From an uncultured Fluviicola sp. (GTDB lineage Bacteria > Bacteroidota > Bacteroidia > Flavobacteriales_D > Crocinitomicaceae), in the NCBI GenBank assembly GCA_966212075.1, contig CBIHOM010000010.1:50573-114572 (forward strand): a stretch of 64,000 nucleotides of DNA. Direction: 5' to 3'. Shown piece after piece: positions 319 through 15,767 of the stretch. How positions within the stretch are numbered: position 1 is the stretch's first letter; the number at the start of each line of letters is the position of its first letter. Both the position numbers and the translations under genes were made by a program. The notes beneath the pieces are model-generated. The model ran no database searches, was not told where the DNA came from, and was given only the letters and a program-made list of their open reading frames with translations.

Positions 319-939
319 TCACTCCAAACCATTCTTCATCGCCCATTTCAGCAAAACGTTCTTTTCTTTTGGAAGACCCAATTTTTCAATAATATTGGAA
401 CGGTGTCCTTCAATGGTTTTTTCTGACAGGAAAAGCATTTCTGCAATCTGCTTGCTTGTTTTTTGCTGCGCGATCAGCTCGATGATCTTCCGCTCCGAAA
501 AGGTTAGTTTATCCAATTCACCGGTCCCTGTTTCCCGGACACTTACCAGGTCACTCATCAACGAATCACTCACGTACTGGTTTCCTTTCGCCACTTCAGC
601 CAGACAATTTTTCAATTCAACCTGTGCATGCTCCTTCAGAATGTAGCCATAAACTCCGTATTCTTTCGATTTATTGTAAATCGTCATCTCATTGTGCATG
701 GTCAACAGGATGATTTTGGTCCTGAGTTTCAGCTCCTGTACTTTCTTGGCAACATCCAGGCCATCCATTGCCGGCATGTTGATATCCAAAATAGCAATGT
801 CCGGAGTCCGGAGCTGGATCATGTTTAAGGCTGAAACGCCATTTGCACAGGTTGCAATAACCTGGTATCCGTAAGATTCCACAAAACTCTGGGTTCCCTG
901 TAGTGTAAAGGGATGATCGTCAGCAATTACGACTGTCAT
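319..939 (-). CDS. NarL/FixJ-family response regulator (REC + LuxR HTH)
   Basis: VVIADDH, ILDINMP phospho-Asp, LLTMH, YILK; LTFSER...IAEMLFLSEKTIEGHRSNI LuxR-type HTH. Confidence 0.95.
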   Translation of the reverse strand: MTVVIADDHPFTLQGTQSFVESYGYQVIATCANGVSALNMIQLRTPDIAILDINMPAMDGLDVAKKVQELKLRTKIILLTMHNEMTIYNKSKEYGVYGYILKEHAQVELKNCLAEVAKGNQYVSDSLMSDLVSVRETGTGELDKLTFSERKIIELIAQQKTSKQIAEMLFLSEKTIEGHRSNIIEKLGLPKEKNVLLKWAMKNGLE

Positions 940-2927
940 GTTGTTTTCTTTAAGTCAATAGTGATTATGGTACCGTTTTTATCGGAGTGAATTTTTGCAT
1001 GTCCCCCGATAGCTTTACTCCTTTGAATGATATTATGTAAACCGAACGCATCTTTTTTTGAAAGAGTTTCAGGCACATTAAATCCTTTTCCGTTGTCTTT
1101 TATTTGGATCATCAAGTCTTCTTGGCTTTCACGGATAATAATTTTTGCAGCCACGGCATCCGCATACTTGATAATATTGGAAAGTGCCTCCTGGATAATC
1201 CTGTAAACCTGCAACTCCTCTGAAACAGATAAGGAACTGCAATAAACGATATCCGAAGTAACCATCAATTGGTTCACAGACTGTGCACGATCCAGCAACT
1301 GATTGATACTTGCAGACAATCCTACTTTCTCAAACATCACAGGATGCAGGTTCCGGCTGATACTGCGTATGTCTTTAATGATCATGTCGATCTTCTCTCC
1401 GGAAACAGTTTTGTCTTCCAATGAATGTTTCAGGTTCAGCAACTCATGGCTCACACTGTCGTGCAGGTCACTTGCAATACGTCTTCGCTCCTCTTCTGTT
1501 TTATCCAGCAAACGCTTGGTGTATTGTTTGGCACGTTTATTCTCCTGTTTAATCTTTTTCTGTTTCTGACGGGAAAAAACAATAAACACCATTAGGATCA
1601 AACCCATCAGAAGAGAAAACAATAATGCAATGGTCATCTTCCCTTGATAGATCGTTTCTTTTTGCAATGCAATTTGCCGTTCCTTTCGCTCGGTTTTATG
1701 AAATTTATCCAACTCCATGGTCTTCGCGATGATTCGCTGATCACTGATCTTATTCTCAGCCTCTTTCAGTTTTTCGGAATAAAAATAAGCAAGCCGGTAA
1801 TTTTTTGTCAGGACTGCATTGTCTTTGAGAACCTCTGCAAAGGCAATTTGATTTTGATGATCTTCCTGTTCTTCAGCAATTTGCAAAACCCGCTTTATCA
1901 ATTGAATATCCTGAATCCCTTCTCCCGAACCGATCTGGTATTCAGCGAGTGAAATCAGGTATTCAATATCAGATGTCGGAGCATTTAATTCATCTGCGAG
2001 CACTTTCATGCGATCCAGGATTTCTTTTGCTTCCCAAATCCGTTTTTTTTGAAGTAAACTCTGTACGTAAAAACTCGACAAAGAAAGTTCCAGTGATTCA
2101 TCAATCAGTTTACTCCTTTTAAATAGAGAATAAGTTGAATCAATGAGCTTATATTGATCCCGGTGTTCCATTTCCTGGTAAAGAATAATCTTGTTATACA
2201 GCGATGTGAACATATTGACAGTATCATTTACTTTTTTAAAGGCTTTCATTGCCTTATTAAAGTAAGCATCCGCATCTTTGTAGTTTTTGGTGTAAAGGCT
2301 TACAAGCGCAAGGTTATCATAGACTCCTCCTTTTCCGGTAATATCATCTGTTTTATTAAACCATTGAAGTGCCTTTAAATCATTTTGAAGCGCTTTTTCG
2401 TGCTCACCCATAGCAAAATAGCAGAATGCCATATCGCCATAGCCGTGTGCAACGTCGACACACGTATAATAATCAGTTGGTTTATTTCTGACCAGGCTCC
2501 GGAAGTACGGCAATGCTTTCCGGTATTCATTCTGATTGATGTTGTAATTTCCCTGGTACGAATCGATGAAAAGTGTCTGGTCCCATGGAAGCTTGGCTTT
2601 AAAGTATTTTTTGAACTTCCGAATTTTATTCAGGGTACTTTCCCGGAAAAGGGAGAAATACATTTCCTGTTCCGCCAATTCCCCTAATGCGATCGCTGCT
2701 TTGTCATAATGTCCGAGTTTCAGATGCTTTTTATAATAGGCATTGAATACAGGATAAAAGGTAGAATCGTGAAAATGGGCTCTTTTTGAAAGCCAGATGC
2801 AGGTGTCATCCAGGTGTGTCCTTGTTTCCTCGTGATAAATAACTTCACTGTCAGGTTCGCTGCATGCACCTGAAAAAAGCAGTAACAGTAATGCGACACC
2901 CAAAAGTTTTGTTAATCGTTTATTCAT
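936..2927 (-). CDS. TPR-containing sensor histidine kinase (HisKA_3 type)
   Basis: Likely start at 2927 (ORF open to 2972) with signal LLLFSGAC; TPR-like helices; TM helix; ERRRIASDLHDSV H-box; IIQEALSNIIKYA, DNGKGF, GLHNI; 4-bp overlap with the regulator. Confidence 0.92.
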   Translation of the reverse strand: MNKRLTKLLGVALLLLLFSGACSEPDSEVIYHEETRTHLDDTCIWLSKRAHFHDSTFYPVFNAYYKKHLKLGHYDKAAIALGELAEQEMYFSLFRESTLNKIRKFKKYFKAKLPWDQTLFIDSYQGNYNINQNEYRKALPYFRSLVRNKPTDYYTCVDVAHGYGDMAFCYFAMGEHEKALQNDLKALQWFNKTDDITGKGGVYDNLALVSLYTKNYKDADAYFNKAMKAFKKVNDTVNMFTSLYNKIILYQEMEHRDQYKLIDSTYSLFKRSKLIDESLELSLSSFYVQSLLQKKRIWEAKEILDRMKVLADELNAPTSDIEYLISLAEYQIGSGEGIQDIQLIKRVLQIAEEQEDHQNQIAFAEVLKDNAVLTKNYRLAYFYSEKLKEAENKISDQRIIAKTMELDKFHKTERKERQIALQKETIYQGKMTIALLFSLLMGLILMVFIVFSRQKQKKIKQENKRAKQYTKRLLDKTEEERRRIASDLHDSVSHELLNLKHSLEDKTVSGEKIDMIIKDIRSISRNLHPVMFEKVGLSASINQLLDRAQSVNQLMVTSDIVYCSSLSVSEELQVYRIIQEALSNIIKYADAVAAKIIIRESQEDLMIQIKDNGKGFNVPETLSKKDAFGLHNIIQRSKAIGGHAKIHSDKNGTIITIDLKKTT

Positions 2928-3121
2928 CAACAGCGAATTTCGCTTTAAAAATACCTGTTTGAAACGGATCAAACGCTTTCTGATCTAAAATTGAGGGTTT
3001 CCCCTTAGTTGACAAAACAGGTAAATAACGGACATTTGCGCATATTAAATCGGGTACATATTTACCCGTTTAACCAAAGCAAACTAATAAACAACCCTAT
3101 AACAACTACTTGTAGCGTAAG

Positions 3122-3359: not shown

Positions 3360-3779
3360 TTACATTGCGGCTTTTTCGCTATTAATTTCTTGTTGTAGTG
3401 TGTTAATTGCACTTTTCAACTGGTGGATAAAACTTCTGCTTGGGAACTGATCGGTAATCGATTCCGGAAAGTCTGAAGGGATATCCATCCCATTGGCGTA
3501 GTGCAGGTACAATACATAATAGTTCTTCAAATACTCATTTTGAATAGCCAAATACGTATTCACCGTGTTCATTTTATTCGCTATCGCTGTCATCAGCAAC
3601 TGTTTATAAGACCTGTCAGGAAACTTATCCAGATGCTTCTGAGGAAAATCAAAGGACAACATTTCTCCGTTGGAAAAATGCCAATACAATTCAAAATAAG
3701 ACTCCAACTCGTTGATCTCACTCAAAACCATTTCAGCATCCGGAAGTGGTGAAAGCCCTATTTCTGCACATATTTCCAT
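3360..3779 (-). CDS. Hypothetical protein of two tandem 59-aa repeats
   Basis: ATG after gaagaaaa; upstream -7 box and downstream terminator; residues 28-66 align to 87-125. Confidence 0.8.
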   Translation of the reverse strand: MEICAEIGLSPLPDAEMVLSEINELESYFELYWHFSNGEMLSFDFPQKHLDKFPDRSYKQLLMTAIANKMNTVNTYLAIQNEYLKNYYVLYLHYANGMDIPSDFPESITDQFPSRSFIHQLKSAINTLQQEINSEKAAM

Positions 3780-3830: not shown

Positions 3831-3898
3831 CAAGTATAGGGCGATTGCAGATACGAAAGCAGCAGAATGTCATGAAATACGAAATCGATGTCATGAAA
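3831..3898 (-). promoter_or_regulatory. Putative LytTR-binding direct repeat and -7 promoter box
   Basis: ATGTCATGAAA exactly at 3867-3877 and 3888-3898; TATACTTG on the minus strand at 3838-3831. Confidence 0.65.
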
Positions 3899-4167: not shown

Positions 4168-4914
4168 TTACTTAATAATCTTGAATTGGTTCAGAACCTC
4201 TTTGTAGTGGTCACTGATGGGAATATGTGATTTATTGCTCATCACCAATAAACCATCGGACGGTTGGATCTCTTCGATTTCATGTGCATTCACAATGTGA
4301 TTGCGGTGCACACGGTAAAATTTAGCCGGATCCAGCAGGTTGATCACTTTCGTAAGCGAGATCTGGATCACAAACTTTTCGGCTCCTGTAAAAATGGAGC
4401 AATAACGCTCCTCTACTTCAATATTGATGATATCGGAAACCGCTACTTTTTTAAGCGCATCCTTTTTCTTAATGAATAAAAAATCGGAACTGATAACCGT
4501 ATCTTCCTCATCACTTTGAAAGATGTCAGGCTGACCATAGAATTTCTCTATCGCCATTTCCAATGCGTAAAGTACTTCCAATGGATTAAATGGTTTCAAC
4601 AAAAAACTGTATGGTTTTGTCAATTTTGCACGCTCAAAAATACTTCGATCCGTAGAGCTGGTAAGAAAAACAAAAGGCCTGGATGACTCCGGAACATTAT
4701 TAAGCGTCTCAGCAAAAGTGATCCCTTCAGGAATTCCATTGAGGAAAATATCGATCACCACAATGTCTACTTTGTTTGCGTAAAAAAGCTGCAACGCTTC
4801 CTGGTGCGATCGTGCCACACCTACAATGTCGAATTGACTTTCCGTCAATGTATCAATCAATTTATCACTCTCAGCTACCGTATCTTCAACAATCAGGACC
4901 TTAATTTTTTCCAT
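4168..4914 (-). CDS. LytTR-family response regulator
   Basis: VLIVED, VVIDIFL, FLTS, FLLKPF receiver motifs; C-terminal FYRVHRNHIVN LytTR signature. Confidence 0.95.
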   Translation of the reverse strand: MEKIKVLIVEDTVAESDKLIDTLTESQFDIVGVARSHQEALQLFYANKVDIVVIDIFLNGIPEGITFAETLNNVPESSRPFVFLTSSTDRSIFERAKLTKPYSFLLKPFNPLEVLYALEMAIEKFYGQPDIFQSDEEDTVISSDFLFIKKKDALKKVAVSDIINIEVEERYCSIFTGAEKFVIQISLTKVINLLDPAKFYRVHRNHIVNAHEIEEIQPSDGLLVMSNKSHIPISDHYKEVLNQFKIIK

Positions 4915-6655
4915 CAGCACATTTCTTTAGGGTAACGATCAGCTTCGTTCCCTCATTTTGTCGACTCCAAATATCTAATTTCCCGTCGTTTTTTGCTAGC
5001 ATTGCGCGACATAAATTCATCCCCAGGCCGGAACCAATTGTTTTTTCGTGGTCTTTTTTCGTTAATTGCGGTGAATCACTCAGCAATTTCAGGCGGGTTT
5101 CTTCCGACATTCCCCTTCCGGTATCTTCCCAGACAAACACGACACTGTCTTCACGTTCACTTTCCAGGCTAACCGAGATATGTGAACCCGGATCTGAAAA
5201 CTTGATGCTGTTATCCATGAAATTACGCAATACGATCTTGATCGATTCAGCGTCCACAAACACTTTTATTGCTTTTGGCACCGTGTTCTCAAACATAATC
5301 CCTTTCTGATGCAACACTCCTTTGAAATTAAATGCCACTTGGTCAATCAACATGCTTAAGCGATGTTCCTCCTGCTTAAAATAACCGCCTTCGGTTTGCA
5401 GGAGCGCCCAATTCAATAAATTATCGAGCATGTTGTAGGTATTGGTTGCAATCACACTGTTTTCTTCCAATTGATTTTCCAAACTGCTGTATTCCTGTTT
5501 TTGAACCTTGTCCTTCAATTTGGTATTGCTGACACTTAACGCGTGCACTGATGATCTCAGGTCATGGCTGACAATGGAGAACAACTGGTCTTTGGTTGCA
5601 TTCAGGAGGTCCAACTCCTGCTTTTGGCGCAAAATTACCCGTGAGCGCAATACATTCTGGCGGTAAAAGTAAGTCCCGAAAATCACAATTGCCATCAGGA
5701 GCAAGGCAGCAAAAAGATAAGTATTTAACCGGGCTTGTTTCAGTTTATTTTCGGTTTCCAATAACTCTACACGCTTCTGTTTATCTGCTATTGCTAGTTT
5801 TTTTTCTATTTGGGCAACTTCGTATATTTTGTTTTGATCGCTGAGTGAATCGTTCCAGCTTTCATATTCCTTCCGGTAATTTAGAGCCAGGTCATAACGT
5901 TTCCGGTTCTCCTCCACTACCGCCATATTATTAGCCGATTTTAATTTTAGCTCTATAGAACCATATTTTTTAGACAGCCAATATGCCTTCTCAAAATAGG
6001 CAATGGCTTTTTCGTCGAGGTATTGCTCATAATAAACGCTGCCCAGGTTCGTATAAACATCAATTAGTGAAGTGTAATCTTTTCGTTCCTCTATCTTTTG
6101 AGCAGCCTGAAGCAAATACTTTTCAGATTCCATGTAATTTCCCAAATGCAGGTAACAAACCCCCATATTCTGCAACAAGGCATCGATTCGAATCGTTTGA
6201 ATGTCCTTTCTATGGGTTGTATCGATCGTTTTAAATAAACCCAAAGCCTGATGGTATTTTTCCTGTGAAAAGAAAATCCCTCCTTTATTGAAACGAATCA
6301 TGGTGTGGAATTCAAAATCTTTTCGAACCAGGTCAAATTCCTTCAAGGCATACTTGAAAATTCCTTTTTTATGAAATGCTTCTGCCCGGTAATAGTGGAT
6401 AAAATCGAGTATTTTTTTGTTTCGGATCTGTTGCAAACATTTTTGAGTATTCACCAATACCGAATCCCAGTTTTCGTCCTTCGCAAAAGCAATTGTCATG
6501 GATAAAGCCCTTAAATTCGGTTGCCTGGCAGCCAGCTCACTTGCTTTTTGATCAATAAAACGATTACTTTCATCACGTTTGGCAAAGGAATGAAAGGAAA
6601 TCAAAAAAAGTGCCCCGAGCAGAGACACTTTTAATTTATGTAGGAATGTATTCAA
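4901..6655 (-). CDS. TPR-containing sensor histidine kinase (HisKA + HATPase)
   Basis: Signal peptide; TPR motifs (LLQNMGVCYLHLGNY, YTNLGSVYYEQ); TM helix; FSIVSHDLRS H-box; LRNFMDNSIKFS, DTGRGM, GSGLGM. Confidence 0.95.
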   Translation of the reverse strand: MNTFLHKLKVSLLGALFLISFHSFAKRDESNRFIDQKASELAARQPNLRALSMTIAFAKDENWDSVLVNTQKCLQQIRNKKILDFIHYYRAEAFHKKGIFKYALKEFDLVRKDFEFHTMIRFNKGGIFFSQEKYHQALGLFKTIDTTHRKDIQTIRIDALLQNMGVCYLHLGNYMESEKYLLQAAQKIEERKDYTSLIDVYTNLGSVYYEQYLDEKAIAYFEKAYWLSKKYGSIELKLKSANNMAVVEENRKRYDLALNYRKEYESWNDSLSDQNKIYEVAQIEKKLAIADKQKRVELLETENKLKQARLNTYLFAALLLMAIVIFGTYFYRQNVLRSRVILRQKQELDLLNATKDQLFSIVSHDLRSSVHALSVSNTKLKDKVQKQEYSSLENQLEENSVIATNTYNMLDNLLNWALLQTEGGYFKQEEHRLSMLIDQVAFNFKGVLHQKGIMFENTVPKAIKVFVDAESIKIVLRNFMDNSIKFSDPGSHISVSLESEREDSVVFVWEDTGRGMSEETRLKLLSDSPQLTKKDHEKTIGSGLGMNLCRAMLAKNDGKLDIWSRQNEGTKLIVTLKKCADGKN

Positions 6656-6668
6656 ACAGAATATCGGT

Positions 6669-7088
6669 TTAATTCTCAGTGGTTCTTACAGAAGTCATAA
6701 TGCCCCGTGAAGTTTTCGGACCAACTGTATTAACCAGTAAATTGTATACTGACAGGATCGCACCTAAATCAATACCTCGTCCGCCCGCATCAGTTGCAGA
6801 CGCTTGAAAGGAACAAGTTATCGATTGAGGGGTTGCAGATGAACTTGAACCGTAAACAGCATAAAACTGGAGGTTGGATGCATTATCAGGAGTATAATAT
6901 TGTTTGATAGATACTTGATTCGGATTCAAATCTCCTGGAATCGTAAATGTCATTATGACAATTAGTTTCCCGGTTCCAGTGTTGTATTCCGCATCAATAG
7001 CAGTTGGATCTGCTAAGTTCGGTGCACTCGTTGGAATGATTGGTACTGCAACCGGTTGAACAGTGTAAGTTTGAATGGTAGTCTCCAT
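6669..7088 (-). CDS. Hypothetical T/S/P-rich protein, first gene of the kinase operon
   Basis: ATG after aaaaaaagcgtt; 13-nt gap to the kinase start; no signal peptide; C-terminus GPKTSRGIMTSVRTTEN. Confidence 0.8.
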   Translation of the reverse strand: METTIQTYTVQPVAVPIIPTSAPNLADPTAIDAEYNTGTGKLIVIMTFTIPGDLNPNQVSIKQYYTPDNASNLQFYAVYGSSSSATPQSITCSFQASATDAGGRGIDLGAILSVYNLLVNTVGPKTSRGIMTSVRTTEN

Positions 7089-7482
7089 AACGCTTTTTTT
7101 TAGTTAGACAAAAGTTTGTAAATATGCTTTTTTTACACAAAAAAATAAAGAGTTCCCCAGTGAAAAAAACGGAATTTTTGGTTTCCCTGTTACGCAAGAA
7201 CACTCAATTTATCGGCTTTTAAAAATAGCCTAAATTTTGTTTAAAAGCTTACAAAAATCAATTAATATCAAATTTTACTAAACAGATTTGTTTAAATAAC
7301 AAATCCGAAATTTCATTGACAGGCAATTTCAACCTGTTCACTCAATTTTCGGGTTAATTCAACATCTTTTGTATTCAAACTGACCCCATCCTCCGTAGCT
7401 TTATAGCATAGAAAGAACTTATAGCGTAAAAACAAGATCTTTCAGGAATACAACTTATACTAGCAACTCTTGTTCGGTTAGG

Positions 7483-7518
7483 AAAAAAACCGCAATCTCC
7501 CATCGATTGCGGTTTTTT
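7483..7518. terminator. Bidirectional intrinsic terminator
   Basis: aaaaaaccgcaatc/gattgcggtttttt. Confidence 0.8.
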
Positions 7519-7534
7519 ATTTTCATATTTAAAC

Positions 7535-7596
7535 TCCGCCGGCGAGAATATCCCTGCTTATCCTCCGCTGGCGCGAGTGTCTTGCTCGTACCCTAC
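7535..7596 (-). repeat. REP-like imperfect palindrome plus a degenerate tandem copy
   Basis: GTAGGGTACGAGCAAGACACTCGCGCCAGCGG on the minus strand (7596-7565); second CTCGC-CGGCGGAG near 7535-7547. Confidence 0.55.
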
Positions 7597-8351
7597 CCCA
7601 CAATCCCTACACTCACCCCATCCGCCAAGACATAAAGCGCGCCGTTCTTCTCCTGCAAAAATGCGATCGCCACAACCCCAATCCGTGAATGAATCCCCAT
7701 CGGGTCAATAACACATGTAAAATCAGCTGGCGGCATGGAATTTTCAAGGGAAATAATGGATTCCGGTGCCGGGTAAACGATATATCGATTAGTTTCAAAA
7801 TCGAGCGAAACAATAGCCGCTTTTATTTGAACATGAGTAGCACCTTTCGGAGCATTGAAAAAGTCACGGGCTGGCGCGAGCATCATACTCGTGTCACTGG
7901 CAAAACAAATAACACCCGTCATCATATCACAACTGATTCGCCCGGTATAGACAGCAGAAATAGGCCTTGCAGCATAAAATGCAAACGATCGCAGAAGCTC
8001 CCGCGAACTTGACTCGTCAAATACCGTCGCTGGATTTCGCATACCGCGAATCGCAGAAAGATCATGCTTCCCCATTCGGATTAAAATCCCCGTTAATCGT
8101 TGGGAAACAATTGAATCTCCCGTAAATGCCGTCGACGCTCTTACTGCCCGCCGGATAAGTTTCCCTGCAACAGCTGCAAGCGCAAATTCAGCAGCATTTT
8201 CACGGGTTCGTGCAAACTGCTCATTGCGTAGTACCTGCTCCCTGTCCGGTCCGCCCTTCTGTCTGACGAGATAACCATACTGCTTATTGTGATAAAATGA
8301 AAGGTCGCCTAGCTTGCCTTTAAATCGAAGTGGTCCTGCCTGATGTGCCAT
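7593..8351 (-). CDS. Hypothetical protein (Bacteroidota family starting MAxQxG..xxxGxxGxxxFY)
   Basis: 252-aa ORF with ATG; basic N-terminus with RTRENAAEF; family recalled from memory, no function known to me. Confidence 0.8.
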   Translation of the reverse strand: MAHQAGPLRFKGKLGDLSFYHNKQYGYLVRQKGGPDREQVLRNEQFARTRENAAEFALAAVAGKLIRRAVRASTAFTGDSIVSQRLTGILIRMGKHDLSAIRGMRNPATVFDESSSRELLRSFAFYAARPISAVYTGRISCDMMTGVICFASDTSMMLAPARDFFNAPKGATHVQIKAAIVSLDFETNRYIVYPAPESIISLENSMPPADFTCVIDPMGIHSRIGVVAIAFLQEKNGALYVLADGVSVGIVG

Positions 8352-9161: not shown

Positions 9162-9336
9162 ACCCTCATCCATATCTGAAAAGAAAGGGAAACAAGACTA
9201 TTACAATGAAGTTTTTACTATACCCGATTTAGACATTTGGTTTGATGCAAAAATTAAACATAAACTAGTTACTATCAGTCTCTTCATTTTCAAATAATTG
9301 ATTTCGGCAAATAGTGTAACTTTGAAAAAAAAGCGA

Positions 9337-10902
9337 ATGATTAAATGTTCTTTATTCCTTCTTCTTACGATACTAAGCTACAACTGTTTTTCACAAGATT
9401 TGGACAAAAAAGCAAAGAAAGCAATAGCGCTAGCGGAAAAAGGAGAACTCGATGAGTCCTTTCGAATATTCATTGAAATCAAAAAAGAATATAAAAGAAG
9501 GGGAGATATAGAAGGAACCGCAGACGTATTAAACAATATCGGTCGGATTTATTATATGATGAACAATTTTCCGGAGGCCAGAAGGAATTTTCAACAAAGT
9601 TACCTCATCTACCAATCTCTCGGCGATAAAACCTCTCAGGCACAGTTGATTATGAATATTGGTGCCACGTATGAGACCGACAACTCAAAGGAACTGGACA
9701 AAGCCTTGAAATATTACCGGAAAGGATACCAAATGTACAGTAAATTAAATGATAGTGTTGGGATCAATCGATCTTTGCTGAATATGGGAACAATCTTCGG
9801 GCGGCAAAATGAAAGCAGGAAAGCATTGAATGTCTATCTGAAAGCCCTACCCTTTTTGGAACGTAGTGGAACTGAAAATGACCGGATTGCCATTTACGCC
9901 AACATAGGTACCAGTTTTTATGAACTCAATGAAGCTGATTCGTCGCTTCCTTATTTATACAAAGCTAAGTCAAAGAGAGGAAACCTTGAATACGATATTT
10001 ATATCAACAGAACTCTAGCCAAAGTCTATGCGAAACTCAATAGACCCGATAGTGTAAACCATTATATAGATCTCTTCTCACAGGTAAAAGATAAATTACA
10101 GGACGAACAAACAATGAGAAGTATTACTGAAATATCTCAGAAATATAAATCTCAGGTCAAGGAAGAAGAAATCGAGAAACTGAAACTCGGAAAAAAAAGA
10201 GACCGCCTCTGGCTCACTTTAATTGTTTTGGCTCTTGTTGGTATGGTTGTGATACTAGGACTCCTTTTCAGAAACCGCATGATCCGATCCGATCAGCAGA
10301 AAACAGAGCTGGAGCACCGCATTCTAAGGGCTCAAATGAATCCGCATTTTTTGTTCAATTGTCTTTCCAGTATTCAGCGCATGTATATTGAAGGAGATAT
10401 CCAGAGAGCCAATGACCTGACGGCTGATTTTGGCACTTTACTTCGTCAAATACTTGATCACACAAGCCAGTCACGAATTCGGCTGAAAGAAGAACTAGAT
10501 ACACTGCAATCTTATATGCAGATTGAACAAATTCGACTGGGAGAAAAATTCCAGTTCGATATAATCGTTGATGAAAACCTCAATATAAATAATCTATTGG
10601 TTCCACCGCTCATTAGCCAGCCAATTGTGGAAAATGCTATCTGGCATGGGATTGTTCCACTTGAAGGTAATGGAAAAATAATCGTTCGATGCAATTTAAG
10701 CAGTGATGAAAAACTGCTTATTTTAGATATTACCGATAATGGAGTTGGTTTTTTTTTAGAGGAATCCCCCCGGAAACGCTCCTCAAAGGGAATAGAACTT
10801 GTTGAAAAACGATTAACATCAAAAGGGTTTCTTCAAATCAACAAGCGGAAAGAGGGAGGAACGAGAGTAACGATTAATTTACCGGTTGAGTATGAAGATT
10901 AG
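9337..10902 (+). CDS. TPR-containing LytS/YehU-type sensor histidine kinase
   Basis: TAACTTTG -7 box at 9317 supports the 9337 start; TPRs; TM helix; LRAQMNPHFLFNCL; QPIVENAIWHG; DNGVG. Confidence 0.95.
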   Translation: MIKCSLFLLLTILSYNCFSQDLDKKAKKAIALAEKGELDESFRIFIEIKKEYKRRGDIEGTADVLNNIGRIYYMMNNFPEARRNFQQSYLIYQSLGDKTSQAQLIMNIGATYETDNSKELDKALKYYRKGYQMYSKLNDSVGINRSLLNMGTIFGRQNESRKALNVYLKALPFLERSGTENDRIAIYANIGTSFYELNEADSSLPYLYKAKSKRGNLEYDIYINRTLAKVYAKLNRPDSVNHYIDLFSQVKDKLQDEQTMRSITEISQKYKSQVKEEEIEKLKLGKKRDRLWLTLIVLALVGMVVILGLLFRNRMIRSDQQKTELEHRILRAQMNPHFLFNCLSSIQRMYIEGDIQRANDLTADFGTLLRQILDHTSQSRIRLKEELDTLQSYMQIEQIRLGEKFQFDIIVDENLNINNLLVPPLISQPIVENAIWHGIVPLEGNGKIIVRCNLSSDEKLLILDITDNGVGFFLEESPRKRSSKGIELVEKRLTSKGFLQINKRKEGGTRVTINLPVEYED

Positions 10903-11641
10903 GGCAATTATTGTTGACGATGAGAAAGATATTCGTTTTCTTCTGCGCAAAATGCTGGAGGAACACTTCAATCATATTATAGACATTGCAGGAGAAGCGG
11001 AAGATATCGCAGCAGCTTCAATATTGATAGATCAGGAAGTTCCCCAATTGATCTTTCTTGATATCAAAATCAAAAATAAAACCGGATTCGATTTACTTGA
11101 AAAGTATAAAGACAAGGATTTTGAAGTCATCTTTATTACTGCTTACGATCAATATGCCATCAAAGCATTTGAGTTTAGTGCAATTGGCTATTTAATGAAG
11201 CCTGTTAAGCTGGAAAAGCTTCGGAAAATTATCGAAAGATTGACGAACAACCTGAATCGCATGAAAGAAGATCCCAATAAGCGAATAAAAATCCTTATTG
11301 ACAATTATGACGGTAATGGTATTAAGAGAATTTGTATAGCAAGTGTGGAAGGTTTTGATGTGCTCGAACTTGACCAAATCATTCGTCTTGAAAGTGATAA
11401 TAATTATACGGATTTTATTACTTCGGGTGGTGGAAAATACACCACAAGCAAGACGATCAAGGAATACGAAGATATCCTTGATGAGTTTGGCTTTTACCGG
11501 ATTCATCAGAGACACATTGTCAACTTGCGGCAAGTGAAATCCTATCAGAAAGGTGACGGCGGGACTATCATACTGAATGACGGTACGGAACTGCCACTCG
11601 CAAGACTGAGAAAACCCGGATTTTTGAAACGTTTTTTATAA
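10892..11641 (+). CDS. LytTR-family response regulator
   Basis: AIIVDDE, IFLDIKI, FITAYDQYAIKAFEFSAIGYLMKP; FYRIHQRHIVN. Confidence 0.95.
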   Translation: MKIRAIIVDDEKDIRFLLRKMLEEHFNHIIDIAGEAEDIAAASILIDQEVPQLIFLDIKIKNKTGFDLLEKYKDKDFEVIFITAYDQYAIKAFEFSAIGYLMKPVKLEKLRKIIERLTNNLNRMKEDPNKRIKILIDNYDGNGIKRICIASVEGFDVLELDQIIRLESDNNYTDFITSGGGKYTTSKTIKEYEDILDEFGFYRIHQRHIVNLRQVKSYQKGDGGTIILNDGTELPLARLRKPGFLKRFL

Positions 11642-11771: not shown

Positions 11772-14700
11772 ATGATAAAGCAAACCTCCCTACTGATTCT
11801 GATCTTTTCCGGATTGTTTTTCTCAAAATTGCAGGCTCAGTCTGTCGTTTATGTTACCAACCTTGCTGATAGCGGACCGGGTTCATTACGCAATAAGATC
11901 TCTGCAGCTTTTCCGGGGGATACAATCCGCTTTCAAGTAACCGGGACCATCTTTCTTAGTTCAGGAGAATTGAACTTTAATAAAAATCTTGTTATTGATG
12001 GGCCGGGAGTTTCTTTACTTACAATTACATCGGTTTCGTCTGATCGTTTATTTATTATTAGTGGCCAAATCACAATTTCGAAGCTGAGGTTGCTGAACGG
12101 ATACTCAAGTACAGGAATGTATTCCGGAGGAATTACCTGTACGGGAGGAACACTGCGGTTAAACCATGTCAAGTTTGAAAATTGCACAGCAGCAGACCTT
12201 GGAGATATTCCAAGAGGAGGAGCATTGAGAGCCAGTTGTGATAGCCTTTTTGTTAATCATTGTGATTTTATCAATAATGGAGTTACCTCTACAAAATATG
12301 CTACTAGTGGAGGAGCAATTTATGCATATGCCATAAAACAGATTATTCGTAATAGCACCTTCGATTCGAATCAGGTTGATGCCGGTGCTGATACACAAAA
12401 TGGAGTGCATACAGCAACCGGGTACGGAGGTGCGGTACATCTGGTTGCGAAAACAAACAGTGTATTATTGGTTGATAGCTGTCAATTTACCAATAATGTC
12501 TGTAATGCCGTTTGTCTATATTCCGCAGGAGCATACCAAGGACAGGGACATGCTTATGGTGGAGCGATACACATAGATGGTCTTCACAATCAATTAAGTT
12601 CAGCTATAAACAACAGCACTTTTACAGGAAATCTTGCAAATGGTACAGGAGTGGGTGGTAATCGCAGTTTATCTTTCGGTACTATTTCACTGATGACTGT
12701 ACCTTCTTCAACTAAAATAACCGCACTTAATAACCTCATCCTTGATAACAATGAAGCCATAGGAACCAGCAGTTATGCGGGGGTAGGTGCCATTTATTCG
12801 TTTCACGGCGGAATTACAATGAATAACCTCAAGGTAACGAATAACACGTCTTATTATGAAGCGATAAAAGTAGACGAAAGTTCTTATGCCAGAATAGAAT
12901 GGTCCTCCATTTCCGGGAATTCTTCCGGTGGGTTGAGGTTGAGACAAGTCGATAGTTCAGATGTGAAAAATAATCTGTTTAGTAACAATGGTAAGGTTGC
13001 GCTGCAATTAGATCAGTTAACAGGTGCTAATACTACTGCCAACTCTACATTTACTGGCAATACTTCCGTTCAGGGAAGTGCGATGCGCATAGAATTCTGT
13101 ACAGGACCAGTCACTGTTTTGAATTGTACCATGATGGATGATACAGTAACTGTGGCAGGTATGGCTGTAGAAATGTATCTATACAACTCACCGCAAGTAT
13201 ACTTGAAAAATAATATTATATCAACCCCTACATTTACCTCTGATCCACTTGTTCAATCATCCAGTACCAGCATAATCAGCCAGGGTGGAAATATTGTTCG
13301 TGATGCTACTTTGTCGCTTTTCCTGGTGCAGGCTAACGATATGAATTCCACAGACCCAATGCTTGGAACTTTTGACGATCACGGCGGCCCGACAAAAACA
13401 TTTAATTTACTCGCTTCCAGTCCGGCAATTAACCTAGGAGGAACCGATACACTTACAATTGACCAACGTGGTTTTTTAAGAGATGTACAATCGGATGCCG
13501 GAGCATTTGAAAACAACGCTACCAATCCCAACAATCCTGTTGTAATGAATCTGTCAAACGACACAACCATTTGTGCATTGCAGACAATTACATTATCAGT
13601 TACTTCCAACAACATTCCACAAGACCCAATCGAATACCAATGGAAAAAGGATAATGTGAATGTTCCAGGCGCGAATACCCCATCATTAAGTATTACTCCT
13701 TCTGCTGCCGGGATATTTAATTACACATGTGAACTATCAAACAATTCAGCATCTGTCATCAGTGATACGATTACAGTTACAGTAAATTCGTTACCTGTAG
13801 TTGATGCAAGCAACTCAACCTCCATTTGTGCAGGGGGTAATACATCGATTTCAGCTATCGGAGCAACTACCTATTCCTGGAACAACGGCCTTGGAACAGG
13901 TAGTTCACATACCGTTTCTCCTGGTTCAACAACGATTTATACGGTTACAGGAACAGATGGAAACGGATGTCAGAATACGGACCAGGTTACGATTACTGTA
14001 AACCAATTGCCATTGGTTGATGCCGGCAATGCTGCATCGATCTGTATTGGAAACAACACTACTATTTCTGCTTCAGGAACTGTTTCTTATTCCTGGGATA
14101 ATGGTCTTGGAGCAGGTAGTTCACATAGCATTGCCCCTGCTTCAACAACGACATACACTGTTACCGGAACAGATGGAAATGGGTGTCAGAATACAGACCA
14201 GGTTACGATCACTGTGAATCAATTGCCAGTAGTTGATGCAAGCAACTCAACTGCCATTTGTGCAGGAAGTAATACAACGATTTCAGCTACCGGAACTGTT
14301 TCTTATTCCTGGGACAATGGCCTTGGGACTGGTAGTTCACATACTGTTTCTCCAACTTCAACAACAACATACAATGTTACCGGAACCGATGTGAACGGAT
14401 GTCAAAATACGGACCAGGTTACGATTACTGTGAATCAATTGCCAGTAGTTGATGCGGGCAATTCAAGTACTATTTGTGCCGGAAATAATGCTACAATTTC
14501 AGCTACCGGAGCAACTTCTTACTCTTGGAACAATGGCCTTGGAGCAGGCAGTTCACATAGTGTTTCTCCTACTTCAACAACCTTATACACGGTTACAGGA
14601 ACAGACGGAAACGGGTGTCAAAACACCGATCAGGTTACAATCACTGTGAATCAATTACCACTAATTGATGCGGGCAGTGCTACATCGATTTGTATTGGTG

Positions 14701-15767
14701 ATAATACTATGATCTCGGCTTCCGGAGCTATTTCTTATTTCTGGGATAATGGTCTTGGAGTCGGTACTTCACATACTGTTTCTCCTAATATTACTACAAC
14801 TTATATGGTTACGGGAACGGATGGAAATGGTTGTCAGAATACCGATCAGGTGATTGTTACGGTTAATTCTTATCCATCTGTTGTCTCAAATGGAGATACT
14901 GCCATTTGTCTTGGAGGAAGCGCGACGATTTCTGCCACCGGGGCCGATTCATATAGCTGGAATAATGGTTTAGGAGCAGGAGCTTCACATGTTGTTTCAC
15001 CAGGAACCACTATGACCTTCATTGTAACAGGAACAACTAACGGATGTTCTGCTACCGATGAGGTAATTATTACTGTGAATCCGATCCCTGTAATCGGTGC
15101 AAATGGCAGTACAACCATTTGTGCAGGCGAAAACGCTACTATTTCAGCAAACGGAGGAATTGTTTATACTTGGAACAATGGTTTGGGTACAGGTGCCACA
15201 CATGTCGTTTCGCCTTTAAATACCACTACATATACCGTCACCGGGAATGATGTAAATGGATGTCAGAATACAGCTCAGGTAACTATTACTGTGAATCAAT
15301 TGCCTAATACCTCAACAACTCTTGGAGCAGATCAGCTAACAATTACTTCAAATAATACTTCTGCTACCTACAATTGGGTCAATTGCAATAATGGGTTCCA
15401 GCCGGTAGGTTCAACAAATCAAAGTTACACCGTCACAATGAACGGAAGCTATGCTGTTATTCTAACTCAAAACGGTTGCAGTGATACTTCAAACTGTGTA
15501 TTTATCGATTACGTAGGTTTGAACGAAATGACGAATGCATTACACTTATCATTGGTTCCGAATCCTACTTTTGGTAAAACCCAAGTGATTACAAGTGAAA
15601 AAATACTAAACTTACGTGTTATCGACAATAGTGGTAAGCAACTGGAAGTAGACATGGATATTACCGAAGGATGGATTGACTTTAGTACCGCTCCCTCAGG
15701 AAGTTACTTCATCGAAATTCTTACTAAAACAGTATCCCACTTTGAAAAAATCAGTGTAATCCATTGA
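11772..15767 (+). CDS. T9SS type-A cargo: beta-helix (GGAI/FxxN repeats), choice-of-anchor-Q-like segment, 7 Ig-like repeats
   Basis: Signal peptide; VTNLADSGPGSLR start; GGAIY..FDSN, GGAVH..FTNN, GGAIH..FTGN; DPMLGTFDDHGGPTKT..DQRG..DAGAFE; C-terminal LVPNPT..GSYFIEI. Confidence 0.9.
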   Translation: MIKQTSLLILIFSGLFFSKLQAQSVVYVTNLADSGPGSLRNKISAAFPGDTIRFQVTGTIFLSSGELNFNKNLVIDGPGVSLLTITSVSSDRLFIISGQITISKLRLLNGYSSTGMYSGGITCTGGTLRLNHVKFENCTAADLGDIPRGGALRASCDSLFVNHCDFINNGVTSTKYATSGGAIYAYAIKQIIRNSTFDSNQVDAGADTQNGVHTATGYGGAVHLVAKTNSVLLVDSCQFTNNVCNAVCLYSAGAYQGQGHAYGGAIHIDGLHNQLSSAINNSTFTGNLANGTGVGGNRSLSFGTISLMTVPSSTKITALNNLILDNNEAIGTSSYAGVGAIYSFHGGITMNNLKVTNNTSYYEAIKVDESSYARIEWSSISGNSSGGLRLRQVDSSDVKNNLFSNNGKVALQLDQLTGANTTANSTFTGNTSVQGSAMRIEFCTGPVTVLNCTMMDDTVTVAGMAVEMYLYNSPQVYLKNNIISTPTFTSDPLVQSSSTSIISQGGNIVRDATLSLFLVQANDMNSTDPMLGTFDDHGGPTKTFNLLASSPAINLGGTDTLTIDQRGFLRDVQSDAGAFENNATNPNNPVVMNLSNDTTICALQTITLSVTSNNIPQDPIEYQWKKDNVNVPGANTPSLSITPSAAGIFNYTCELSNNSASVISDTITVTVNSLPVVDASNSTSICAGGNTSISAIGATTYSWNNGLGTGSSHTVSPGSTTIYTVTGTDGNGCQNTDQVTITVNQLPLVDAGNAASICIGNNTTISASGTVSYSWDNGLGAGSSHSIAPASTTTYTVTGTDGNGCQNTDQVTITVNQLPVVDASNSTAICAGSNTTISATGTVSYSWDNGLGTGSSHTVSPTSTTTYNVTGTDVNGCQNTDQVTITVNQLPVVDAGNSSTICAGNNATISATGATSYSWNNGLGAGSSHSVSPTSTTLYTVTGTDGNGCQNTDQVTITVNQLPLIDAGSATSICIGDNTMISASGAISYFWDNGLGVGTSHTVSPNITTTYMVTGTDGNGCQNTDQVIVTVNSYPSVVSNGDTAICLGGSATISATGADSYSWNNGLGAGASHVVSPGTTMTFIVTGTTNGCSATDEVIITVNPIPVIGANGSTTICAGENATISANGGIVYTWNNGLGTGATHVVSPLNTTTYTVTGNDVNGCQNTAQVTITVNQLPNTSTTLGADQLTITSNNTSATYNWVNCNNGFQPVGSTNQSYTVTMNGSYAVILTQNGCSDTSNCVFIDYVGLNEMTNALHLSLVPNPTFGKTQVITSEKILNLRVIDNSGKQLEVDMDITEGWIDFSTAPSGSYFIEILTKTVSHFEKISVIH
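13797..15305 (+). repeat. Seven tandem intragenic repeats of about 216 bp (72 aa)
   Basis: Unit like VVDAGNxxxICxGxNxTISAxGxxSYSWxNGLGxGxSHxVSPxxTTxYTVTGTDGNGCQNTDQVTITVNQLP. Confidence 0.95.

Follow-up and report, generated by a model that had tools for sequence, protein, structure and literature searches.

A leaderless beta protein encoded beside a periplasmic TPR sensor kinase is a candidate ligand or co-sensor in Flavobacteriales

What does a protein without a secretion signal do when its gene is the constant neighbor of a gene for a kinase that senses outside the cytoplasm? This question is raised by a 139-aa protein encoded in a 64,000-nucleotide stretch of DNA from an uncultured Fluviicola sp. 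(hereafter, the window; contig CBIHOM010000010.1, positions 50,573 to 114,572), immediately 5' of the genes for a sensor histidine kinase with a tetratricopeptide repeat (TPR) domain and a LytTR-type response regulator. Based on comparisons of gene order and residue changes across many such loci, we lean, with some reservation, towards the reading that the adjacent kinase has the small protein as its cognate ligand or co-sensor and that, with the LytTR regulator, the two form a three-component signaling module. The C-terminal hairpin of the small protein most likely docks on the periplasmic sensor of the kinase.

The small gene has an in-frame TAA 18 nt 5' of its ATG, therefore a longer N-terminus with a signal peptide is impossible. 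Its product is rich in T, S, and P (42 of 139 residues, 30%), has an isoelectric point (pI) of 4.5, and was modeled by AlphaFold2 as an all-beta protein of nine strands (predicted local distance difference test [pLDDT] 90.6, predicted template modeling score [pTM] 0.85). The C-terminal tail reads VGPKTSRGIMTSVRTTEN, with a motif that occurs once in the window and once in the genome. In the model, the C-terminal hairpin is made up of strand 113–120, loop 121–129 (TVGPKTSRG), and strand 130–137, and the extended conserved block in Flavobacterium (I-x-T-I-Q-T-F-L-W-D-x-D-P-x-T-S-R-G-T-x-T-T-V) is consistent with this strand-loop-strand arrangement. Across the family, the number of residues that follow S-R-G varies from 6 to 17, thus the motif has no fixed distance to the C-terminus and is not a carboxylate-anchored terminal peptide. 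The small protein had no family match in Pfam, NCBIfam, or PHROGs. Mfa_like_1/Type V pilin (PF13149) was considered and rejected (16.3 bits vs a cut-off of 27, E 0.01; no lipoprotein signal and no structural match). Foldseek found nothing significant in the PDB (best E 0.065, TM 0.34–0.36) or in BFVD (best E 0.44), nor did a profile search of PDB sequences.

Homologues were collected by a word-indexed search, which returned 17 proteins (identity 56–91%), and then by an exhaustive search of 1.84 billion representatives, which returned 21 proteins, including 19 of query-like length. Nine of 401 genomes of the phylum matched the small protein, all within the window's own class; the matching loci beyond its family came from Flavobacterium, where the motif reads DP(K/E/V/I)TSRGT(V/E)TTV. 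Family members range from 126 to 207 aa and share the consensus [D/G]-P-x-[T/S/A/G]-S-R-G-T-x-T-x-V. In the wide alignment of the small protein, the invariant columns are M1, L25, P51, Q63, Y76, P124, S127, and R128. Among 140 distinct sequences, which were selected by P124, S127, R128, and G129, the information content is 2.95 bits per column at residues 121–135 and 1.30 at residues 1–110. D/G123, T130, T132, and V134, which were not selection criteria, are conserved at 91–94%, and P19 and Y79 are the only residues outside the motif that reach at least 90% conservation. Between Fluviicola and Flavobacterium, identity is ~22% in the small protein, ~40% in the sensor domain, ~50% in the kinase core, and ~60% in the regulator. 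Low overall identity combined with a nearly invariant hairpin implies that the small protein evolves fast everywhere except at its C-terminus. In the literature on LytTR/TPR systems in Flavobacterium and on the motif, no description of this family was found.

The three genes are tightly arranged: 13 nt lie between the small gene and the kinase gene on its 3' side, and the last 20 nt of the kinase gene are shared with the regulator gene. All 10 Flavobacterium loci found via the small protein encode an orthologous kinase directly downstream (E ~1e-130 to 1e-150), and a LytTR regulator was detected downstream in nine of them. Locus searches that started from the kinase alignment found at least 573 relatives in species-representative genome contigs, from genera including Fluviicola, Flavobacterium (with F. 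johnsoniae), Dokdonia, Kordia, Tenacibaculum, Algibacter, and Bizionia, and at least 347 in metagenome contigs. Immediately upstream of the kinase, 68 of the best 80 genome loci have a small open reading frame (ORF) ending in P-x-[TSA]-S-R-G and 10 more have motif variants such as DPxGSRG (78/80 linked); in metagenome contigs, the small gene is directly 5' of the kinase in 55 of 62 testable loci. No member of the small-protein family without the kinase was seen in the 401-genome search and the Flavobacterium loci. Two complete modules per genome occur in Flavobacterium polysaccharolyticum (L017, where they sit 8 kb apart), in genomes G191 and G319, and in a Bizionia metagenome-assembled genome (MAG; L080 and L101).

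An earlier note, made from the letters of the window, had described the product as a T/S/P-rich leaderless 139-aa protein with a beta-rich core and a distinctive C-terminal GPKTSRG motif, had mentioned similar small proteins ending in the pattern (D/G)P(K/E)TSRG(T)xT, and had placed them upstream of TPR-kinase/LytTR pairs in other Flavobacteriales. The composition, upstream stop codon, and nine-strand model bear out its description of the protein; no other part of the family is as conserved as the motif; the pattern agrees with both the family consensus and the Flavobacterium motif; and the genomic position recurs in the loci counted above. Its picture of a free C-terminal tail did not hold, because the segment is predicted to form a loop (121–129) and the last strand (130–137) at a variable distance from the end.

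The kinase and its partner differ in predicted location. In the window, the kinase consists of a signal peptide (residues 1–25), a periplasmic TPR domain (~30–305), one transmembrane (TM) helix (~309–334), a DHp domain, and an ATPase domain. A Bacteroidota-type N-terminal signal peptide and a single hydrophobic helix at ~305–335 were found in 87 of 87 kinases, all with the H-box no more than ~30 residues beyond that helix, and an N-terminal hydrophobic segment was absent from all 87 small proteins. This topology places the TPR domain in the periplasm and the synthesis of the small protein in the cytoplasm. Cysteine counts and pI do not discriminate between the compartments. In the kinase model, the TPR array closes with helix 234–250, and a long stalk helix (254–304) leads to the TM helix and DHp.

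To analyze how motif and sensor change together, we compared the two variable motif positions, x1 of P-x1 (K125 in the window) and x of G-T-x-T (M131 in the window), with the kinase and regulator. In 80 small protein/kinase/regulator triples, all 28 cases of E131 have R or K at kinase residue 238, K131 is matched by E238 in two of four, V131 mostly by Q238, and M131 by L238; similarly, E125 is matched by K or R at position 242 of the kinase, and L242 accompanies V, I, or K at 125. When ~830 kinase and regulator columns were scanned for charge compensation, kinase residue 238 was the top partner of position 131 (22.0/22.0; runner-up 11.4) and residue 242 was the top partner of position 125. An all-against-all scan of 140 protein pairs (67 x 584 columns, ~39,000 pairs) returned 131–238 as the global maximum, with 39.6 of 40.8 charge changes compensating; the runner-up for column 131 was kinase residue 242 (19.9), and no other top pair had a two-fold margin. 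Using path-disjoint pairs on a tree built without the helix columns, 8.9 changes at 131/238 went in the same direction and none in the opposite one (p ~0.004), and the corresponding value for 125/242 was p ~0.008. Only these two approaches, sign-aware charge compensation and tree-based independent pairs, were informative: plain mutual information was swamped by the split between Fluviicola and Flavobacteriaceae, and a Fisher scan of sister pairs, which scored columns as 'changed or unchanged', failed to single out the helix and was confounded by the divergence of the pairs.

The pairing rules, stated beforehand, were then checked in 55 further pairs from metagenomes. Motif E occurs with R or K at 238 in 15 of 17 pairs, and motif K with E238 in four of six (E238 otherwise in 1 of 49), which brings both data sets together to 43/45 for motif E and 6/10 for motif K (1/125 otherwise). 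In the same 55 pairs, motif P-E is accompanied by K, R, or Q at 242 in 19 of 24, and other residues by L or F in 25 of 29. Kinase residues 238, 242, and 246 lie on one face of helix 234–250, and residue 242, the partner of 125, is one turn from 238. The paralogous modules of F. polysaccharolyticum combine I/E with R238 in one copy and K/V with Q238 in the other. Such differences in motif/helix pairs between module copies (L017; L080/L101) are expected if cross-talk is avoided.

A second line of evidence comes from six loci that retain the small ORF in place without S-R-G (L054, L102/L145/L156, L158 [S->I], and L173). Their kinases were examined at the 90 columns with at least 97% invariance among 139 kinases whose partner bears the motif (33 columns in the sensor and 57 from the TM helix onwards). 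Substitutions were found at D214 and N250 in five of the six kinases each, at I218 and V247 in four each, at Q211 in three, and at Y208 in two, with single substitutions at M244, E248, A217, Y220, F114, and Q293; their cytoplasmic half contains one change only, K345R. In the five kinases whose partner wholly lacks S-R-G, 27 of 28 substitutions in invariant columns fall in residues 208–250 and none in the 57 cytoplasmic columns, and in the sixth (L158) only Q293E, K345R, and R251L were found. The motif change R->E in L102 is paired with D214K in its kinase, which is a further charge swap. Judged from their sequences, the six kinases appear intact with one sensor surface remodeled. The small proteins of L102/L145/L156 end in PF(E/K)GTV...GDG instead of xxSRGTxT, and their kinases carry D214K/S, Q211K/M, and N250Y/L/A. 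This sub-family may represent a second ligand-receptor 'dialect'.

The proposed docking pocket comprises helix 234–250, with the covarying residues L238, N242, and V246 and the invariant residues N243, V247, E248, and N250, together with invariant R251 and with Y208, Q211, D214, and I218. Because the two covarying pairs and the co-loss all fall within residues 208–251 of 584, we propose that the hairpin tip contacts this pocket (Table 1). The case for docking would rest on three lines of evidence meeting at one surface, and this convergence is good, though not conclusive, evidence of such a contact. The earlier note had suggested that a C-terminal tail docks on the TPR domain; covariation and co-loss at the sensor argue for the docking part of that suggestion, and its extended terminal peptide gives way to the tip of a folded hairpin.

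Table 1 Features of the module and its surroundings in the window
Feature	Position	Strand	Description or basis
Second two-component pair	319..2972	(-)	Lipoprotein-type HisKA_3 TPR kinase 936-2972 and GerE/LuxR-type regulator 319-939
Downstream gene	3360..3779	(-)	139-aa helical protein with internal duplication, no known family; Fluviicola clade
Direct repeat TTTCATGACAT x2, 21 bp start to start	3867-3898	(-)	Probable LytTR operator before downstream gene
Response regulator, receiver and LytTR	4168..4920	(-)	Pfam Response_reg 1.9e-13, LytTR 3.4e-19
Sensor histidine kinase	4901..6655	(-)	584 aa; Pfam TPR_12, HATPase_c
Proposed docking pocket, kinase residues 208-251	5903..6034	(-)	Covariation, co-loss, kinase model
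Terminator-like hairpin and U-run	6606..6632	(-)	Just 3' of small gene, within kinase codons 8-17
Small-protein gene	6669..7088	(-)	139 aa, leaderless, all-beta; family unannotated; constant 5' partner of kinase gene
C-terminal beta-hairpin codons (residues 113-137)	6678..6752	(-)	AlphaFold2 model and conservation
Motif codons G123-P-K-T-S-R-G-I-M-T-S-V134	6687-6722	(-)	Most conserved part of the family

The terminator-like hairpin is embedded in the signal-peptide codons of the kinase, so that one stretch serves as both RNA structure and coding sequence. In nine Fluviicola-clade loci (L001, L004, L026-L030, L076, and L106), it is kept via compensatory changes even though the encoded amino acids differ. 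More widely, 51 of 174 loci have a perfect-stem hairpin followed by a T-run in the 170 nt that follow the small gene, compared to 3 of 174 control stretches inside the kinase gene. This enrichment implies that the small gene is probably expressed far above the kinase and regulator genes, with co-transcription by read-through, and hairpin 6606-6632 is probably an attenuator that makes the small-gene transcript more abundant. The earlier note had called the small gene co-transcribed with the kinase; the 13-nt gap agrees with this, but the conserved hairpin lies at the very start of the kinase gene.

The output of the module was sought behind the regulator gene. The TTTCATGACAT repeat is the only exact pair in the window; the box is kept in F. 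taffensis and a MAG, where it is followed by a promoter-like TAtACTTG that is also conserved, and 41 of 127 modules have the same consensus no more than 450 bp beyond the regulator gene. Two copies of TTTCATGACA at a 21-bp period are likely the regulator's operator. Gene 3360-3779 keeps its place behind the box in nine Fluviicola-clade loci and was found in that clade only. It is likely the regulated gene of the module there, as an induced target fits the LytTR-type direct repeat in front. Its protein consists of two similar halves of ~55 residues (ELYWHFSNGEMLSFDFPQKHLDKFPDRSYKQLL... and VLYLHYANGMDIPSDFPESITDQFPSRSFIHQL...).

Elsewhere, the downstream gene changes by locus and the small gene stays constant. 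Pfam matches among the downstream products include PixA (2e-18), MACPF (4e-16), PI-PLC-X (5e-10), and MVL mannan-binding lectin (2e-17), as well as GH64-like proteins (7e-11) in 10 loci where the strict repeat box was not detected. Other downstream genes encode a ~247-aa family in 10 loci that is read as signal-peptide-bearing, small membrane proteins, a protein with a weak leukocidin-like match, DUF1842 and DUF2589 proteins, a trypsin-like protein, and a VWA protein. A 96-aa downstream protein with a QVVAG motif looks cystatin-like and has no Pfam match. Most downstream products are read as lacking signal peptides. The variety of toxin-like and lectin-like genes behind the same cassette (L017, L020, L025, L088, L123, and L048) suggests a portable anti-eukaryote switch.

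Taken as a mechanism, these features would operate as follows. Owing to a leaky terminator, transcripts of the small gene would outnumber those of the kinase and regulator genes, and the product, a compact leaderless beta-sandwich, would be retained in the cytoplasm of an intact cell. On meeting the periplasmic TPR domain, the hairpin tip would dock in pocket 208–251 beside the stalk helix, where D214, Q211, and N250 would read the invariant S-R-G, and kinase residues 242 and 238 would read K125 and M131, which would provide specificity between paralogous modules. Docking would switch the kinase, and the phosphorylated LytTR regulator would bind the TTTCATGACA-N11-TTTCATGACA repeat and turn on the downstream gene (3360-3779 in the window; PixA, MACPF, GH64-like, lectin, and PI-PLC genes elsewhere). 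Physical binding, the direction of the switch, and the route to the periplasm are the parts of this model that we infer. The residue-level specificity rules that it predicts are motif E with kinase R/K, motif K with kinase E, and motif R with D214.

Several points weigh against a ligand or co-sensor role. The partner appears to lack a signal peptide in 87 of 87 cases while the TPR domain is predicted to be periplasmic in 87 of 87 kinases, we know of no export route for the leaderless protein, and a folded 15-kDa protein should not cross the outer membrane. According to the model, the last strand belongs to the fold, and exposure of the motif may therefore fall short of what docking needs. The 131/238 pair came from scanning, and with ~12 independent pairs and p ~0.004 it fails multiple-testing correction alone; the metagenome set has common ancestry with the first set and adds no independent evolutionary events. 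Finally, no repeat box was found 5' of the small gene in the window (7089-7592), so there is no sign of autoinduction, and upstream of most small genes in the family only AT-rich chance repeats occur.

Concerning the route, delivery by a type VI secretion system was rejected, as the sheath protein TssC (PF05943) is absent from the window genome and from eight other module-bearing genomes of the 401-genome sample, and so was cargo status in a type IX secretion system, since a Pfam scan found no Por_Secre_tail C-terminal domain and there is no signal peptide. Neither a twin-arginine translocation (Tat) motif nor a lipobox was found in the small proteins (87 members), and no conserved transporter, exporter, or protease was found near the module in the neighborhoods examined. 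With respect to a type I secretion system (T1SS; HasA-like), the small protein is leaderless and has a conserved C-terminus, and no linked ABC/MFP/TolC exporter was found. Acid-labile cleavage at D-P was discounted as a means of release, since members of the Fluviicola clade, and with them the window, have G-P instead. The remaining candidate routes are a damaged or gated cytoplasmic membrane of the cell itself, lysed kin followed by uptake or proteolysis, and an unlinked exporter such as a T1SS; leakage within the own cell requires no outer-membrane crossing. Our preferred route, which we infer from the considerations that follow, is that the protein leaks through a damaged cytoplasmic membrane or out of lysed kin and acts as a damage cue, and the alternative is an unknown exporter. 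Lysis, as a possible kin-damage cue, had also been raised in the earlier note.

Two features favor a damage cue: a ligand that lacks a leader and is probably over-expressed, and outputs that are for the most part toxin-like proteins without a leader. In its full form, this extension holds that the abundant leaderless protein is an alarm for envelope breach or kin lysis, which is read by the cell's own periplasmic TPR kinase and answered, via LytTR, with leaderless anti-eukaryote weapons. We regard this as possible but doubtful, and equally tentative is the list of weapons, namely MACPF and leukocidin-like pore-formers, PixA inclusion proteins, GH64-like glucanases, mannan-binding lectins, and PI-PLC. 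If true, the module would be a genetically encoded 'necrosignal'-receptor pair spread across Flavobacteriales. Known damage or kin-lysis cues include the AcrA 'necrosignal' of E. coli swarms and the Pseudomonas aeruginosa lysate response through Gac/Rsm. Under the preferred route, released cell contents would likewise signal to survivors, although the AcrA and Gac/Rsm cues come without a dedicated co-encoded and co-evolving receptor kinase.

The best surviving competitor, which we still find unlikely, is a processed peptide pheromone, in which the C-terminal ~12–25 residues would be cut at the D/G-P bond, exported or released, and bound in the TPR groove, as a Gram-negative counterpart of ComC/PlnA-type factors. 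In Firmicutes, ComC-ComD-ComE, PlnA-PlnB-PlnC/D, and BlpC-BlpH-BlpR are three-component peptide-pheromone modules, and the resemblance is considerable: the order of small signal gene, kinase, and LytTR regulator is the same, targets have two ~10-bp direct repeats at a 21-bp period, outputs are often toxins, and paralogues differ at few ligand/receptor residues. Conservation concentrated in the last ~25 residues also suits a peptide, for which the envelope would be less of a barrier than for a folded protein, and the sensor covariation is equally compatible with it. However, the body of the small protein is a confident fold under purifying selection within clades (56–91% identity), which a leader would not need, and the D-P bond is G-P throughout the Fluviicola clade. 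Moreover, a spacing of six between the covarying motif residues, against four along a helix between their kinase partners, suits a hairpin tip better than an extended peptide. Compared to the Firmicutes signal, a ~40–50-aa peptide with a double-glycine leader that is sensed by a polytopic HPK10 kinase, the protein here is leaderless, folded, and 126–207 aa long, and its sensor is a periplasmic TPR domain with one TM helix. Searches of the family and its neighborhoods found no double-glycine leader, no conserved neighboring protease or ABC exporter, no linked processing enzyme, and, in the window, no autoinduction box before the signal gene. The module thus lacks the features that define pheromone systems: leader peptide, exporter, polytopic sensor, and autoinduction.

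Even though the absence of a signal peptide, the tight coupling to the kinase gene (13-nt gap), and the common occurrence of odd cysteine numbers, as for a cytoplasmic protein, would all suit a cytoplasmic accessory regulator, we give this explanation only a small chance. The small protein would then modulate the cytoplasmic domains of the kinase or the regulator, as a feedback inhibitor or connector like Sda, KipI, or PmrD. Covariation and co-loss were found on the periplasmic sensor and not on DHp, ATPase, or regulator, and none of the 57 invariant cytoplasmic columns is changed in the five kinases with an S-R-G-less partner. The terminator-like hairpin also implies a large excess of the small protein over the kinase, which speaks against such a role.

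It is very unlikely that the small protein is a pre-export partner that binds the TPR domain on the cytoplasmic side, ahead of Sec export or while it proceeds, as a holdase, assembly factor, or export-failure gauge, so that the two never meet in the periplasm. This explanation does account for covariation between an exported domain and a protein without a leader, and needs no export route. However, Sec substrates pass through the membrane unfolded, yet the covariation shows a formed helix (i, i+4) and a three-helix pocket; a holdase with paralogue-specific charge pairing is without precedent, and an excess of the small protein over the kinase would be needless. Least probable of all is a co-located gene with an unrelated function of its own (structural, storage, or toxin-like as in PixA-type genes) and covariation from linkage and common history, for although the weak Pfam match to Mfa_like_1 (E 0.01), the neighboring downstream genes that likewise encode small leaderless beta proteins, and the modest statistics of independent events are in its favor, common history explains neither the sign of the changes, which are all charge-compensating and in both directions, nor why the top partners and co-lost residues all lie inside 208–251 of 584, the downstream genes vary by locus while the small gene is constant, and the Mfa_like_1 score is 16.3 against a cut-off of 27 with no lipoprotein signal.

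As a ligand or co-sensor, the small protein can be compared to separate proteins that bind a periplasmic sensor and set kinase activity, such as CpxP-CpxA, ExoR-ExoS, TorT-TorS, and LuxP-LuxQ. Those partners are periplasmic proteins with signal peptides, whereas none of the 87 small proteins has one. In the RRNPP receptors (Rap, NprR, PlcR, and PrgX), which are cytoplasmic and bind peptides that are secreted and then re-imported, a TPR domain similarly reads a short conserved motif, with specificity given by a few variable positions; here, in contrast, the ligand is synthesized in the cytoplasm and the TPR domain lies on the other side of the membrane. The closest sensor architecture is that of FimS in the FimS/FimR system of Porphyromonas gingivalis, a signal-anchored periplasmic TPR sensor kinase whose signal is unknown (PMC11053733). 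FimS (NF053520) is the best NCBIfam match of the window kinase (E 1.4e-42), but with 145.8 bits against a cut-off of 600 the kinase is not a FimS orthologue. Furthermore, the partner regulator here is of the LytTR type, and for FimS the output is fimbriae and a small partner protein is not reported.

Periplasmic TPR sensor kinases are very common in Bacteroidota and, to our knowledge, no ligand is known for any of them, FimS included. The module thus offers a candidate ligand encoded beside its receptor for a large class of orphan TPR sensors. If binding is real, a leaderless protein acting beyond the membrane would pose a topological puzzle that points to an unknown export route or to cytoplasm leakage as a signal. 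A portable switch before toxin-like and lectin-like genes would also guide the search for anti-grazer or antifungal factors of Flavobacteriales.

Outside the module, the second two-component pair (Table 1) lies behind it in the Fluviicola clade only, and no counterpart was found in nine Flavobacterium loci screened. Upstream, a strong bidirectional terminator (7484-7518) marks the end of a 252-aa ORF (7593-8351, minus strand) that has no family match in Pfam, NCBIfam, or PHROGs. The gene at this position differs in F. taffensis and the MAG, therefore the upstream boundary of the module is placed here. Flavobacterium-like modules were also present in two contigs filed under a Porticoccaceae MAG and a Limnohabitans MAG (L075 and L095), with kinases 42–45% identical to the window kinase; these contigs are probably mis-binned rather than transferred to Proteobacteria. 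The window contains another pair on the plus strand (9298-11641), consisting of a TPR kinase (534 aa) and a LytTR regulator without a small partner gene, and it is followed by a 1331-aa protein (11772-15767) with a signal peptide and many tandem repeats of ~75 aa.

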